Positions 6,295 to 43,314 of a stretch of 64,000 bases of DNA are shown here, piece by piece. The stretch is from an uncultured delta proteobacterium (GTDB lineage Bacteria > Myxococcota > Myxococcia > Myxococcales > Myxococcaceae). Position numbers and translations under genes: made by a program. Every line of letters begins with the position of its first letter. Within the stretch, counting starts at the first letter, position 1. The notes below the pieces were generated by a model that worked only from the letters and a program-made list of their open reading frames with translations, ran no database searches and was not told the DNA's origin. Location of the stretch: contig CAVYSY010000006.1 in the NCBI GenBank assembly GCA_963771175.1, forward strand, positions 64,001-128,000, read 5' to 3'.

Positions 6295-6357
6295 ACCCCG
6301 CGAGGGCAGTCCCTGACGGGCTCACGCGCAAGGTCCGCGCATCGGCCTCGCTGCTCT

Positions 6358-6432
6358 CGACCTCCTGGGCGCGCGCTGCGAAAACCTGTCCGACAGTCGG
6401 ACAGGTTTTTCAAAAGCGCGCCCGGGAGGTCG
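6358..6432. repeat. Intergenic dyad repeat, unit type B (copy 1)
   Basis: Perfect palindrome AAAACCTGTCCGAC-A-GTCGGACAGGTTTT at 6381-6409, flanked by arms GACCTCCTGGGCGCG / CGCGCCCGGGAGGTC. Confidence 0.9.
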
Positions 6433-6488
6433 GCATCACCTCGGGAGGAATCGGACCACGGACGAGAGGCTCGTGGGCCGAGCCGTTC

Positions 6489-26380: not shown

Positions 26381-28112
26381 AGAGCGATCGATAAATCCCG
26401 TGGGTGGGCAAGGCGGGTGATCCAGAAGATGGGTGGGGAAGCGCAGCCCCACCCCTGGGGTTCGGGAGCGAGAGGCCACCTGATGAAGTAGGCAGGAGAA
26501 GTGAACAGAAGAGCGCGCCGAGCAATGCGAGGGAAGCGTACGGACGAAAGAGCCGGACAGGTCGCAGGGCTGGTTGTTCAAGCAGATGCCGGAGCAGTTG
26601 GTGGAGCCGGAGCACCCGGTGAGGGTGGTGGCGGCGGCGGTGGAGGCGTTGGACCTGAGCGGCTTTCTGGCCGAGGCCAAGGCGGTGGAGGGACACGCCG
26701 GGCGCCCGGTGACGAGCCCGCGGTTACTGCTGGCGCTGTGGGTGTACGGGATTCAGCAGGGAGTGGGGACGGCGACGGAGCTTGCGCGCCGGTGCGAGGA
26801 GGACAGGGCGTACGAGTGGCTGGCCGGTGGAGTGAAGGTGAGCCACGACAAGCTGAGCCAGTTCCGGGTGGAGCACCAGGAGGTGTTGCAGCAGGTGTTC
26901 ACCGACGTGCTCTCGGTGCTGTTGCAGCAGGGGCTGGTAGGCCTGGAGCAGGTGGCGCAGGACGGCACCCGGGTGAGGGCCAGTGCCTCGGCGCCGTCGT
27001 TCCGGCGCGAGCAGTCGCTGCAGGAGTGCCGACAGCAGGCCGAGCTGCACCTGGAGGCGGTGCTGGCGCAGAAGGACGACCCGGAGCTGACGCGTGGGCA
27101 GCAGGCGACACGAGAGGCCAAGGCGCGTGACTACAAGGCGCGGGTGGACGCGGCGCTGGAGGCGATAAAGCAGCAGCGGGCCAGGAAGAAGGGGGCGGAC
27201 AAGGACAAGGTGCGTGCCTCCACCACGGATGCGGATGCGCGGGTGATGAAGATGGCCGACGGGGGCTTCCGGCCCGCCTACAACCTGCAATTCGCGGTGG
27301 CTGGGGAGACGCTGGGTGGGCCGCGAACGATTGTGGGGGTGGAAGTCACCAACCAGGGCAGCGACCTGGGCAGCGTCAGCCCCATGGTGGAGCAGATTGA
27401 GCAGCGCACGGGCCAGGTGCCCGAGCGCCTGCTGGCCGATGGCAACCACGCCACGTGCGAGGACGTGAAGCAGTGCGCGGCCAAGGGGATTGAAGCCCTC
27501 ATCTCGGTGCCTGAGCGCATGGCCAACGCCAAGGAGCAGGGGGACCACTCCGCCGAGGTAGAGGCCTGGCGTGAGCGCATGCGCACGCAGGAGGCCCGGC
27601 AGCAGTACAACAAGTCGCGCGCCAGTCTGGTGGAGAACGTCAACGCGCAGGTGAAGGGACGCTACGGCCTGACGCAGGTGACGGTGCGGGGCCTGGACAA
27701 GGTGAAGAGTGTCGCCTTGCTGGTGGCCCTGGCGCACAACCTGGCCGCACACGGCCAGCCTCTGGTGGATGCGCTGCGGGCGCGCCAGAGCGCGCTGCCG
27801 AGCGGGCTCACCTCCTCGAGCTGACCGCGGGAAACCCGGTCTCCCACGGGGGCGACATCAGCCCGGTGGGCCAGGTCACCGCCTTGCCTGCTGGCTTCTG
27901 ACGACCAGCCCGCTGCTGCGTGTGTGGTGTGACCGGGCCTCAGGCTCCAACGAGGCGATGAGCCCCCGGGCGTGTGTTTGAATTCCGCTCTCGCCTGCTT
28001 CCACCTGCACAACCCCCCTCCAGCTCCGCGCCTCGGGATGGGCGATTACCTCCGCCCACCCCTCCTCTTCCTGATCGCGCTCTGCTCCGGCGAGGGATTT
28101 ATCGACTGCTCT
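26381..28112 (+). mobile_element. IS1182-family insertion sequence, 1732 bp, 19-bp terminal IRs, TAA target duplication
   Basis: IRL AGAGCGATCGATAAATCCC (26381-26399); IRR GGGATTTATCGACTGCTCT (28094-28112), 17/19 match; TAA at 26378-80 and 28113-15. Confidence 0.9.
26501..27824 (+). CDS. IS1182-family DDE transposase (probable 5' frameshift between GTG 26501 and ~26540)
   Basis: EHPVR, GRP..P..LL.LW.YG, QDGTRVRASAS, STTDADAR.MK, PAYNLQ, LADGNH and VENVNA..K motifs. Confidence 0.92.
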
Positions 28113-28237
28113 TAAGTGTACAAGTTGCTCAACATCGCGCCCGGAGGGCGCCCTGTCCTCCGAGACCACAGGCCCCCCGGCCTCGTTCTTCACAAACCTG
28201 TCCGACTGTCGGACAGGTTTTTCGGAACCGAGCCCGG
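28113..28237. repeat. Right half of dyad unit A plus unit B (copy 2)
   Basis: TAA-GTGTACAAGTTG-N8-CGCGCCCGG; then AAACCTGTCCGAC-T-GTCGGACAGGTTT at 28194-28220. Confidence 0.88.
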
Positions 28238-28263
28238 CGGCCCCTCCCGCCCGAACTCGAGGC

Positions 28264-39625: not shown

Positions 39626-40591
39626 TTGCTGGATGCACTGTGGGAACGGCGGGCGCTGCTCGTCTCGGGCAAGGGTGGAGTCGGCAAGACGACCTTCGCG
39701 GCGGCGCTGGCGCGCGCGGCGGTGGCGCGGGGCCGACGGGTGTTGCTGGCCGAGGTGGAGGTGTCCTCGGATGAGCAGGAGGGCCCCTCGCCCCTGGCCT
39801 CGCTGGTGGGGGCGCGGCAACCCGGCCCCCAGGTCACCGAGGTGGGCGCGGGCCTGTCCTTCGTCCGGCTGTCGCCCATCGAGGGCCAGCGCCTCTTCCT
39901 GCAGGACGTGCTGCCCATCCGGATGATGGCGGACGCGGCCATGCGCATGCGCGCGCTGCGCCGCTTCCTCGAGGCCGCCCCCGCCCTGCGCGAGATGGGC
40001 GTGCTCTACCAGATGCTGCACCTCATCCGGCGCACCCGCCCGGACGGCAGCCCTCTCTATCCGCTGACCATCCTGGACCTGCCGGCCACGGGGCATGCGC
40101 TGGCCCTGGCGGCGCTGCCGGACGCGCTGCTGTCCGTGATGCCCGGGGGGCCCATCGGCCGCTCGGTGCGCGAGGGCATGAATCTGCTGAGGGACCCGGC
40201 CCTCACCGGGGCCCTGCTCGTCACCCTGCCCGAGCCGCTGCCCGTGAGCGAGACGCTGGAATTGGCCACCGCCATCCAGCGCCACCGCATCCCCCTGGCC
40301 GCGGGCGTGCTCAATCGGGTGCCGGAGAATCCCTTCTCGCCGGACGGCCGCGCCGCCGTGGAGCGGCTGCTGGACGAGCACGGGCCGCATCGGGGGCAGC
40401 GGGCGCTCGCGCGGTTGGACCGGGCTCGCAACGCGGAGGCCCGGCTGGCGGGCAACCTCCCCGCCCCGCTCCTCCTCGTGCCCGAGCTGCCCACCACCGG
40501 GAAGGAGCTGGTGGAGCGGCTCGCCACGTACCTCACCCGACCCGCCCCACACGCGTCGCCCGCCCTCGGGCGCGCGGGAGCCCCGTCATGA
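39626..40591 (+). CDS. ArsA/Get3-family ATPase (subunit 1)
   Basis: GKGGVGKTT, DLPATGH and VTLPE motifs. Confidence 0.88.
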   Translation: MLDALWERRALLVSGKGGVGKTTFAAALARAAVARGRRVLLAEVEVSSDEQEGPSPLASLVGARQPGPQVTEVGAGLSFVRLSPIEGQRLFLQDVLPIRMMADAAMRMRALRRFLEAAPALREMGVLYQMLHLIRRTRPDGSPLYPLTILDLPATGHALALAALPDALLSVMPGGPIGRSVREGMNLLRDPALTGALLVTLPEPLPVSETLELATAIQRHRIPLAAGVLNRVPENPFSPDGRAAVERLLDEHGPHRGQRALARLDRARNAEARLAGNLPAPLLLVPELPTTGKELVERLATYLTRPAPHASPALGRAGAPS

Positions 40592-41703
40592 GCCTCCACT
40601 CCCTGCTGCGAGAGAAGCGCGTCCTGGTGCTGTGCGGAGCGGGAGGCGTGGGGAAGACGACGACGGCGGCGGCGCTCGGCGTGGCGGCGGCTCGCGCGGG
40701 CCGCAAGGTGCTGGTGCTCACCATCGACCCGGCGCGGCGGCTCGCCGAGGCCATGGGGCTGACCGAAGGCGGCGCCGAGCCCACGACCATTCCGCCCGAG
40801 CGGCTCTACGAGGGCGGCCAGCCCGGCACCGGCCAACTGGACGTGTGGATGTTGGATCCGCGCGTCGTCTTCGAGCGCTTCGTGAAGCGGCTGTCTCCCA
40901 CGCCGGAGGCGGCGCGCAACATCCTGGAGAACCGCCTCTATCGCTTCCTGTCGGACCTGGTGGCGGGCATGCAGGAGTACGCCGCGGCCGAGGCGCTCGA
41001 CAACTTCCTGGACGAGGGCCGCTACGAGCTCGTCGTGTTGGACACGCCCCCGAGCCGCCACGCGCTGGACTTCCTGGAGGCCCCGGGGCGGCTGGCGCGC
41101 TTCCTGGATGATCGCATCGTCTCGCTCTTCCTCCCGGAGGAGAAGGGGCGCGGGGGGCGGTTGTGGCGCAAGACGTCGCAGCTGCTGGGCAACGTGCTGG
41201 GGAGCATCTTCGGCGAGGGCTTCACCCAGGAGATGCGGACCTTCATGGGGGCTTTCAGCGGGCTGTTCGCCGGCATCCGGATGAGAGCGGATCGGCTGCG
41301 CTCGCGGCTGAGCTCGCCGGACGCGGCCTTCCTGCTGGTGACGTCGCCGGAGGAGGCCTCGCTGGAGGAGGCCTCCTTCTTCCGGGACATGCTGCGCGAG
41401 AAGGGGCTGCCCTTCGCGGGCTACGTGCTCAACCGGAGCTGGGCTCGGGAGGACGGGCTGGCCCACCCCGAGTCGCTCCTGCGGCACGTGGAGGAGCACG
41501 GCGCGGCGCGTGACGGGGTGAAGGCGCTCATCCATCTGGCCGACAACGAGCGTGCGCGCGCCGAGGCCCACCGAGGGCTGCTGGCGCGACTGGCGGAGCG
41601 GCTGCCCGCGGGCGCGGTGGCGGTGGCCGCCCCCGAGGCCGGTGGCGAGCTGGAGGACTTCGGGGGCCTGGTGCGCCTGGGCGAGGCGCTCGCCACCCCG
41701 TGA
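40588..41703 (+). CDS. ArsA/Get3-family ATPase (subunit 2)
   Basis: GAGGVGKTT, TIDPARRL and DTPPSRHALDFL motifs; ATGA overlap. Confidence 0.9.
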   Translation: MSLHSLLREKRVLVLCGAGGVGKTTTAAALGVAAARAGRKVLVLTIDPARRLAEAMGLTEGGAEPTTIPPERLYEGGQPGTGQLDVWMLDPRVVFERFVKRLSPTPEAARNILENRLYRFLSDLVAGMQEYAAAEALDNFLDEGRYELVVLDTPPSRHALDFLEAPGRLARFLDDRIVSLFLPEEKGRGGRLWRKTSQLLGNVLGSIFGEGFTQEMRTFMGAFSGLFAGIRMRADRLRSRLSSPDAAFLLVTSPEEASLEEASFFRDMLREKGLPFAGYVLNRSWAREDGLAHPESLLRHVEEHGAARDGVKALIHLADNERARAEAHRGLLARLAERLPAGAVAVAAPEAGGELEDFGGLVRLGEALATP

Positions 41704-41785
41704 GGCGCTGCCGGGGCCTCCGAAGGAAGTCCTTTCATCCAGGTTGAGGCACGGCATCCGCGCGTCCGAATCGCGGACCTCGCCC

Positions 41786-41929
41786 CCCGGTCGCGCGGCA
41801 CGCGAACTTGTCCACTATGTGTACAAGTTGCGCGAGAACGCGCCCGAGAGGTCTCCCTCCCCCCGGGCGCGCGGCGCGCAAACCTGTCCGACTGTCGGAC
41901 AGGTTTTTCAAAAACGCGCCCGGGAGGTC
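41786..41929. repeat. Intact composite dyad repeat A+B (copy 3)
   Basis: A core GAACTTGTCCAC-TAT-GTGTACAAGTTG at 41804-41830; B core at 41880-41906; both have 8-bp spacers and CGCG arms. Confidence 0.9.
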
Positions 41930-42087
41930 CTCCCCGCCGTGTACTTCGGGGCAGCACCGATGTCTGGAGGTGGGCACTCAGGAGGAGCGAGCGTGCCCGC
42001 GGTCGGACAGCAGGGCAGAGGGGCTCCCGGGCCCCCCTTGGAGACAGCCGCCGCCGTGTCGAGCCTTCGACATAGGAGGTCTGATCC

Positions 42088-43314
42088 ATGGCCCAGAGAC
42101 ATACCGACGATGGCCGGGACGTTCCGGCACGCCCCTCGCCAGCGAACGGCATCCCGAGCAGCGACCGTGAGCGCGAGCGACGAGCCGCCGAGGCCCCACC
42201 GGGCTCCCGCGAGCGCTCCGAGTCCGACGCCACCGGCTGGAGCCCCGAGCGCGACGAGAACCCCGCCGCGCTCGAGGGCCGCTACCACCGCGCCGCCCAG
42301 CTCCGACTGGCCCAGCCGCGCACCGAGCAGGGAGCGCCACCGCCCCGGGACGACACGAGCCGGGACCTGGGCCCCCGGCACCGCATGTTCCACCGGGACC
42401 GCCCCATCGAGAGCCCGGGGCGCTCGCCCACCGATACCGACTATGGCCCCTATGGCCGGGATGATCGCTCGGCCGACTCTCCGTCCGGGCAGGGCGCGGG
42501 GCCGCTGCTGGGCGAGCAGGATAGGGACCACTCGCTGGACATGCGCCACCCGGCTCGGGAGTACCGCCCGTGGGACCGCACCGGAGCCGGCGCCGACACT
42601 CCACCCCTGGGGCGGGGTCCGTACACGGAGCCCGGCGGGCGCGAGACGTTCCGCACGGGTGGAGAGGAGTCGCGGTGGCACGAGGGCCGAGAGCACCGTC
42701 ACGGGCCGCGCGAGGAGCGCACCTGGGAGGAGGACCGCCCCGGGCAGGCGCGAGTCGAGGGCACACGCGAGGGGTACTCGGGGCTGCTGGGCATGGGCCA
42801 GGGCACCGTGCCGCGCGAGACCCGCGCCCCGTCCGAGCAGGGCCGCCGGGGCCGCTGGAAGCGCGAGCCGCTCACCGCGCGGGAGATCATGACGCGCCAC
42901 GTGAAGAGCGCCCGGCTCGACAGCAGCCTGCGCGACGTGGCGCGCATCATGAAGGACGAGGACTGCGGCATCGTGCCGGTGGTGGACGAGCGCGGGCGGC
43001 TGCGGGGAGTGCTCACGGACCGCGACCTGGTCATCCGCACCCTGGCCGAGGGCCGGCCTCCGGACACCCTGCTCGCCCGGGACGTGATGACGGATGACGT
43101 GGAGGCGGTGACCCAGGACGAGGACATCCACAGCATCATCGCGCTGCTGGGCCGCCGCCAGGTGCGTCGCGTCCCGGTGGTGGAGCGCGATGACCGGCTG
43201 GTGGGCATCATCTCGATGGCGGACATCGCCACCCGCGCCGACTACGACGAGGAGCTCCAGGAAGCACTGGACCGCATCTCGGCCCGGCGCTCGTTCTGGA
43301 GCCGCCTCATCTAG
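42088..43314 (+). CDS. CBS-pair protein with long disordered N-terminus
   Basis: AGGAGG RBS; EIMTR..GIVPVVD..GVLTDRD and DVMT..RRVPVV..GIIS motifs. Confidence 0.88.
   Translation: MAQRHTDDGRDVPARPSPANGIPSSDRERERRAAEAPPGSRERSESDATGWSPERDENPAALEGRYHRAAQLRLAQPRTEQGAPPPRDDTSRDLGPRHRMFHRDRPIESPGRSPTDTDYGPYGRDDRSADSPSGQGAGPLLGEQDRDHSLDMRHPAREYRPWDRTGAGADTPPLGRGPYTEPGGRETFRTGGEESRWHEGREHRHGPREERTWEEDRPGQARVEGTREGYSGLLGMGQGTVPRETRAPSEQGRRGRWKREPLTAREIMTRHVKSARLDSSLRDVARIMKDEDCGIVPVVDERGRLRGVLTDRDLVIRTLAEGRPPDTLLARDVMTDDVEAVTQDEDIHSIIALLGRRQVRRVPVVERDDRLVGIISMADIATRADYDEELQEALDRISARRSFWSRLI

Follow-up and report, generated by a model that had tools for sequence, protein, structure and literature searches.

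Dyad units of a myxobacterial genome as modules of IS630-derived mini-transposons, and their probable link to a FadR/GntR-family regulator

What palindromic repeats do between bacterial genes, and how they came to be there, are questions raised by a short intergenic spacer in a 64,000-nucleotide stretch of DNA from an uncultured delta proteobacterium (the window, in what follows). The spacer lies between the gene of an ArsA-like ATPase (40588-41703) and that of a CBS-domain protein (42088-43314) and holds two units of one layout, in which an arm, 8 bp, a 27-bp core, another 8 bp and a second arm follow each other. An earlier note, made from the letters of the window, had described five such units with two core types and had suggested a multi-part protein-binding site or a cruciform or RNA stem, such as a REP/BIME-like or nucleoid-organising element. 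Here, the units were followed through their source genome (G000; an assembly of 9.83 Mb in 58 contigs, 82% complete; other G numbers denote relatives and L numbers loci) and through related myxobacteria. The overall picture that emerges, of modules between IS630 ends, a 27-bp core acting as a regulator's operator and cores replaced in place, would seem to us a probable one.

Units, cores and their distribution

All five units lie where the earlier note had placed them (Table 1), four of them intact and one split by an IS1182-family element, and the motif AACYTGTCC-N7-GKACARGTT matches the window at the four intact places (seven strand matches) as against none in 100 shuffles. Many further copies exist: the G000 assembly holds 103 units in 72 intergenic clusters, together with a few damaged ones, and the 8+27+8 geometry extends genome-wide, with both arms in register in 95 of the 101 intact units. 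Instead of two core types there are three, with 71 copies of B, 17 intact copies of A, 13 of the additional type C, and two A cores split by insertions. The spacers, once thought free in sequence and mostly non-complementary, do pair poorly (on average at 3.1 of 8 positions) but follow a type-specific consensus. Covariation between them was looked for, and pairing within a copy proved no better than that of spacers drawn from different copies (3.1 against 3.4). A guide-RNA-like reading of the 8-bp spacers was also considered and is ruled out by their fixed consensus.

The pairing of A with B recurs in eight clusters, but the order A before B is not fixed, as five clusters are BA; the rest of the 72 comprise BC (9), ABC (2), BAC, ABA and BB (one each) and single units (45). 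Tandem units follow each other with a period of mostly 92-96 bp and share their orientation in 26 of the 27 multi-unit clusters. Core B is identical in all 71 copies, none having one to four mismatches, whereas its flanks vary; at the rate of the eight best-conserved flank columns, about 81 changes would be expected where none is seen. Mismatches to the type consensus number 1-6 in A and 0-5 in C, and the column counts give AAAC/GTTT or SAAC/GTTG as core ends. With gene gaps taken from a rough purpose-made gene caller, 32 of the 72 clusters lie between convergent genes as against 385 of 3589 background gaps (11%); five lie between divergent genes, and few dispersed cores stand at promoters.

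Table 1. Features of the repeat family in the window
Feature	Position	Strand	Basis
Unit 1: single unit, core B (6382-6408), between convergent genes	6356..6434	+	
Unit 2, left half: arm, spacer, left half of core A and TAA loop	26340..26380	+	
IS1182-family element in the core A loop, TAA duplicated; transposase 26574-27824	26381..28112	+	NF033551 above cut-off
Unit 2, right half: duplicated TAA, right half of core A (28116-28127), spacer, arm	28113..28153	+	
Unit 3: arm, spacer, core B (28194-28220), spacer, arm	28168..28246	+	
Decayed left terminal repeat, IS630-type mini-element	41712..41741	+	TIR motif and profile score
Unit 4: arm, 8-bp spacer, core A (41804-41830), 8-bp spacer, arm	41778..41856	+	
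Unit 5: arm, spacer, core B (41880-41906), spacer, arm	41854..41932	+	

The family is dispersed, intergenic and lineage-specific, as had been supposed. The full arm-8-core-8-arm geometry is present in eight of ten sampled congeners and in none of 140 other genomes of the family, while the core alone reaches 55-132 copies in nine of 11 genomes of a second genus. Records carrying the core are mostly from Corallococcus and Archangium, with one from Hyalangium, and the same 25-mer is conserved across two genera where the flanks are not. At the locus of units 4 and 5, the spacer is empty in most congeners that have both genes adjacent; it holds A only in G011, where unit 4 occupies the orthologous place and unit 5 is missing, A and B in G000, and a different doublet in G012. 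Several congeners have taken independent insertions into this same spacer, among them repeat units, a cytochrome P450-like gene and an unknown gene.

The vehicle and its ends

The units belong to a longer element, whose terminal inverted repeats the earlier note missed. Reading outward from the clusters brings out shared ends, with terminal repeats of about 29 bp, and a metagenome scan with that end led to L225, a 1.18-kb autonomous element with the same inverted repeats, TA flanks on both sides, and HTH and DDE_3 reading frames for which the best model is IS630, each frame scoring under the whole-protein cut-off. Loci homologous to L225 number 14 in 12 of 200 family genomes (three of 17 congeners), most of them with such ends and none of the 14 with a core inside; an autonomous IS630 with these ends was not found in the 82%-complete G000 assembly. 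When scored with a profile for which 20 distinct IS ends were the only training set, at a control threshold of 1%, an IS630 end adjoins 30 of the 72 clusters, with both ends at eight (165-381 bp), and 42 clusters have no end recognisable by this profile; all 27 strong matches genome-wide adjoin units. The element at C21:153765-154009 has an empty counterpart, C-TA-G, in both G011 and G002, so TA was duplicated on its insertion. A second empty-site test, at C21:66165, gave no comparable empty allele, the neighbourhood differing at all 13 relatives' loci shown. The two 245-bp copies on contig C21 are near-identical mini-elements without a transposase. Fourteen of the 27 strong ends overlap a called stop codon, and the bias to gene ends is explained by insertion into CTAG, often within TAG stop codons. 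That the units form the interior of non-autonomous mini-transposons derived from IS630, as modules, is close to certain.

At the locus of units 4 and 5 only a decayed left end is left: a 17-base TIR motif matches at 41715 with one mismatch, the 30-base profile scores -1.6 and so falls just below its 1% threshold of -1.3, and no right end is recognised. The left remnant is likewise present in G011. Half-cores as the ends of a separate 91-bp MITE were also considered and given up, all 13 extra half-sites being split, damaged or contig-end units.

The same module is found between ends that belong to four IS630 lineages. The relatives supplied 140 loci centred on a core: 20 with ends as in G000, four with a second, four with a third and six with a fourth end type, and 106 with none; modules between such other IS630 ends include L096, L114, L265, L274, L277 and L133. 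IS630s found in G000 have ends of the second and third types, and a 1.07-kb DDE_3 element has those of the fourth. That the interior is conserved while its ends are interchangeable suggested that the core has a function.

Core-less MITEs of 85-135 bp built from the second and fourth end types also occur (C28:137775-137867 in G000, and L303, L304, L308, L315 and L317), so miniaturisation of IS630 is common in this family. Furthermore, L251 and L260 of G016, which are near-identical, each consist of two mini-elements in tandem with an internal end in common; the core is C-like in one mini-element and D-like in the other.

Other mobile elements have entered the cores. The IS1182-family element in unit 2 is a later visitor and a passenger; a MITE of about 90 bp with the ends of this element occupies a different A loop, and a third such loop marks the end of contig C56. 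Both insertions in G000 (2/2, the IS and the MITE) being in A loops, these loops are a hot spot. A role for the IS1182 element as the repeat's driver, or as a repeat-specific IS, is excluded by its general targeting of CTNAG: in G008, 11 of 12 IS1182 relatives with both ends visible lie in CT(C/G)AG sites unrelated to cores and one lies beside a core. CTNAG occurs 10,108 times in G000 and in seven of the 17 intact A loops. Another insertion element, starting CAGGGTTG, occupies the centre of B or C cores at no fewer than four places in three genomes (C32:568494-569032 and C46:56265-56305 in G000, L200 and L113), so that core tips attract more than one IS family.

The IS630 ends and the TA duplication bear directly on the proposal of a REP/BIME family, which would be mobilised by a RAYT (TnpA-REP) nuclease. 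The units do resemble REPs in being extragenic palindromes with a bias to convergent genes, in their mosaic clusters and lineage-specific variants, and in the IS insertions at their hairpin tips. However, none of 16 Y1/RAYT-like loci (PF01797) in G000 and five relatives has a core within about 1.5 kb, the Y1 genes carry short end repeats of their own instead of cores, and the column counts contain no GTAG or CGTC tag at the hairpin foot. This reading is largely refuted, and we give it next to no credence. Three of the Y1/RAYT-like genes (L004-L006, at C44:175830-176760, C44:35775-36705 and C21:224175-225135) are related to each other and encode about 310-330 aa. Placed in arrays near the origin and equipped with end repeats of the GGTGTC type, they have no relation to the cores.

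A second possibility is that the dispersed copies are kept as RNA hairpins, acting as two-way terminators or stabilising mRNA 3' ends, a role that has been suggested for REPs and for Correia/ERIC elements. The strong bias to convergent gene ends would suit this, as would the long stems into which the units fold (z-scores -3 to -10) and the run of 3-6 T that follows core B, and B only, on both strands. The CTAG target already accounts for the gene-end bias, though, and a structure would allow compensatory changes, of which B has none in 71 copies; moreover, the core of G012 is asymmetric. A terminator scan finds no site at 41500-42300, the earlier view that the units are not simple terminators probably holds, and Rfam gives no match at the gathering threshold in the window; two RNA runs (contigs of mixed samples) contain a small share of it. 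The RNA hairpin is a very unlikely reason for the persistence of the copies.

A linked regulator and its candidate operator

At Corallococcus loci the core often lies upstream of one gene family, of the FadR/GntR type. Its sole homologue in G000 (C44:138080-138802, 240 aa) stands directly after egtD and the only BB cluster and encodes a GntR domain (PF00392), that is a winged helix-turn-helix (wHTH), with an all-helical C-domain of the FadR type. The predicted fold is FadR-like and two-domain, with a pLDDT of 86 and a TM of about 0.65 to E. coli FadR; the protein scores under the cut-off of every named NCBIfam equivalog and hence is not FadR, PdhR or NanR itself. In its neighbourhood (C44:136650-140180, L332), the gene lies between the ergothioneine methyltransferase gene egtD and a gene for a 459-aa membrane protein that overlaps its stop codon, and it is possible that the regulator's effector is linked to ergothioneine.

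The regulator gene occurs in 42 of 201 genomes. It is single-copy in G000 and in nine of 17 congeners and missing from the other eight, and it reaches at least 14 copies in a second genus, where 19 of 21 genomes have it. Five of the 14 copies in G194 are elements of about 1.6 kb, 93-97% alike and with IS630 ends, which hold the core and the regulator gene without a transposase. Multicopy forms (up to at least 14) are seen also in genera that lack the dyad core (L353-L361 and L382-L393; g45, g38, g8 and g43). There, the homology between copies has a sharp boundary at an ATGTCAG box, some 55 bp upstream, and is gradually lost within a variable repetitive tail. The Corallococcus cargo regulator (L093:2330-2889 and others) has a variable low-complexity tail of 130-400 aa with 72-bp internal repeats, which is missing in the 240-270-aa Archangium form.

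A core lies 115-288 bp upstream in 84 of the 99 regulator gene copies examined, a set of best matches and hand-picked loci, not a random one, in which a few may be one place twice. The other 15, from other genera, are without a dyad core; close to the start, all but one of these 15 (14 of 15) carry a single TGTCAG(A/C)C box, perhaps the ancestral site. In Archangium, the core upstream of the gene is of the type dispersed in that genome: B in G000, A in G011, and C in G016, G013 and G006. In G012 both are an asymmetric 24-mer, uniform in its 33 copies. Genomes with the gene have 11-132 cores (n=14) and those without it 0-22 (n=7), in a comparison of kin that are not independent and with G012 set aside, its core lying outside the pattern. 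Five near-complete relatives, none of which has the gene (0/5), retain well-formed cores (22 in G009, 13 in G014, eight in G015, three in G008 and one in G010).

A recognition code fits as well. The E. coli FadR consensus is given as aaCTGGTCnGACC(T/A)Gtt (PMC9329746), and for the FadR subfamily it is stated that HTH position 28 (FadR Arg35) covaries with one base of the TKGT box, at which Arg prefers G/C (PMC4494728). Set against the consensus in this form, core C reads as the FadR site with an internal 8-bp repeat, that is as two overlapping GTC-N-GAC boxes. Cores B and C, both having two such boxes, fit GTM-N-KAC / TKGT..ACMA and differ in the two bases that precede the outer GTC; A and the G012 core fit in their outer half-sites only, and A misfits the inner halves of the double-box model. 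In the protein, the column after 'SE' corresponds in alignment to the ER motif that PdhR, NanR and NagR have, position 28 being FadR Arg35. Its residue is Arg in all 28 copies with TGG cores and another in all 56 with other cores, so that it predicts the core base in 84 of 84 gene-core pairs (rows passing a length filter), and it is the only perfect separator among about 240 columns, the next best reaching 78 of 84. On a tree built without the DNA-binding domain, each trait changes seven times, the changes coinciding and falling in both genera; the independent pairs on well-supported branches are concordant in three of three, which as only three pairs gives a sign test p of 0.25. The core and the DNA-binding domain lie within about 350 bp, and so may be inherited or recombined as a block. 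The G000 protein has Glu36, a non-Arg residue, which fits a uniform B and a decaying C in that genome. Taken together, position, consensus and covariation argue that the core is likely the operator of the linked regulator, and the native core most likely serves to autorepress the regulator gene.

In some places one core appears to have been exchanged for another. When 28 units of G011 were scored against G000, five orthologous places had A in G011 and B in G000 (L444, L448, L449, L451 and L357), with 15-26 of 28 arm positions and 16-17 of 27 core positions alike, and one place had A against C; three further A units of G011 match AB or BA pairs and were left out of the count. L448 is unit 1 of the window (arms 26/28, core 17/27), and L357 is the upstream site of the regulator itself. 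Five orthologous B-B pairs have 26-27 of 27 core and 20-25 of 28 arm positions alike. G011 has A upstream of its regulator, yet its B cores are also well conserved. Recombination through the arms is, we infer, the simplest cause of such replacement.

These observations could be joined as follows. The regulator would bind two overlapping GTC-N-GAC boxes in the 27-bp core. A cargo element with IS630 ends, holding operator and regulator gene and still whole in G194, would have given rise to short operator-only derivatives, which an IS630 transposase might place in trans into CTAG sites, often TAG stop codons; the modules would then duplicate in tandem with a period of about 94 bp, and most of their ends would decay. 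Upon a change in the regulator's specificity, cores would be replaced in place via recombination through the conserved arms, leaving the cognate type B of a Glu36 protein uniform and the non-cognate A and C to decay. Mini-elements that carry the core would scatter dozens of one regulator's sites across a genome; most dispersed cores are at gene ends, an unusual place for a repressor site. Of the multi-part protein-binding site first suggested, the core would keep the part of a probable site, likely that of the FadR/GntR regulator, whereas the best account of the arms and spacers is that they make up the body of an IS630-derived mini-transposon module.

It could be argued instead that this is an ordinary IS630 MITE and that no protein is cognate to its palindrome, in which case the regulator would be a fellow passenger and the uniformity of the core a product of recent amplification, gene conversion and self-repair of the hairpin. 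The MITE nature is shown, cores persist in the five gene-less genomes, physical linkage alone is able to produce covariation, and in-place replacement itself homogenises. Nevertheless, the sole perfectly covarying column is the residue known to read that very base in the FadR family, the G012 core is uniform and matches the gene's upstream site without being palindromic, and the 25-mer is kept in two genera when its flanks are not. We hold the protein-less palindrome to be unlikely, although less so than the other alternatives weighed here.

Chromosome-organising pairs of a protein and its sites, such as MatP/matS, SlmA/SBS and Noc/NBS, are known elsewhere, and by analogy the system might have been domesticated, with a single-copy regulator near the origin binding origin-biased sites and looping or marking the chromosome. 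In G000, G016 and G006, some 43-60 kb separate the gene from dnaA. The cores, whose position relative to the origin had been proposed as a check, are indeed enriched there: in two genomes of one contig each, 15 of 25 and 22 of 60 are found no more than 0.9 Mb away from dnaA; the dnaA contig of G000 carries ten of its 72 clusters, and sites are rare at promoters. Against this, the gene is absent from eight of the 17 congeners and is multicopy mobile cargo in Corallococcus, and an origin bias is common among mobile elements. The proposal shares its binding claim with the operator model and adds a host function only, an addition that we consider improbable.

A further elaboration of the operator model, which we offer tentatively and would not expect to hold, is that regulator and operator form a selfish pair. 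Together, the FadR-type factor and the double operator may hitch-hike on any available IS630 ends and seed 50-130 cognate sites per chromosome, all of which would be rewritten in place once the recognition residue changes.

Known systems and significance

An 87-bp repeat of Myxococcus xanthus, which may or may not be identical with the present one, was reportedly described in 1991. In listings of openly available papers, no description of the present repeat or of its link to a regulator was found, the core sequence occurred in no paper, and a REP/RAYT study searched by name only (PMC3733652) contains no myxobacterial names.

The spread of transcription-factor sites by transposons is a central idea in eukaryotic regulatory evolution. 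To our knowledge, few clear-cut examples from bacteria come with a cognate factor that has been named. Here the factor, the site, the vehicle and natural switches of specificity are all visible in culturable genera, which makes the idea directly testable, and the 84 natural protein-site pairs are a ready test of a GntR recognition code. In annotation, the analysis accounts for an abundant myxobacterial repeat and for a puzzling multicopy 'GntR' family in Corallococcus. If the dispersed sites are bound and functional, they would amount to a transposon-built regulon in a bacterium. Should the selfish pair prove real, it would be a transcription-factor counterpart of REP/RAYT, and a bacterial regulon or chromosome-marking system would have been caught forming and being domesticated beside the origin.

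As judged from its sequence, the vehicle joins the IS630-related MITEs (RUP, Correia, ERIC). In the passages of the review at hand, RUP of Streptococcus pneumoniae, Correia/NEMIS of Neisseria and ERIC are small, non-coding and intergenic, with terminal repeats matching IS630, TA duplication and long stems, and Correia carries an internal protein (IHF) site to which the core may be likened (PMC2229807). As far as those passages go, the present units differ in their modular interior with its period of about 94 bp, in their GC-rich host, in an internal site that matches a co-travelling and covarying regulator, and in a module common to four IS630 end types. The likeness to the FadR subfamily (E. 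coli FadR, 1HW2/1H9T) lies in the wHTH with an all-helical C-domain (TM about 0.65), in a site upstream of the protein's own gene and in the Arg-to-G covariation, as given in part of PMC4494728. Unlike that subfamily, the regulator has about 15-25% identity to solved members, a double overlapping box, and tens to over 100 sites that are spread by transposition and mostly placed at gene ends, and its gene is multicopy and mobile in Corallococcus. Transporter IS (tIS) elements, in the part of PMC9330008 seen, are likewise IS derivatives with a passenger gene between IS ends; the G194 elements depart from them in lacking a transposase, and in a cargo of regulator and presumed operator, the latter multiplying without the gene. 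REP/BIME/REPIN-RAYT systems, according to parts of PMC6006769, share the extragenic palindromes, mosaic clusters, convergent bias and IS hot spots, as well as the lineage-specific co-evolution of a repeat with one protein. Compared with what is described there, the partner here has the fold of a transcription factor and not that of an HUH nuclease, and the repeat travels between IS630 ends without a GTAG or CGTC tag.
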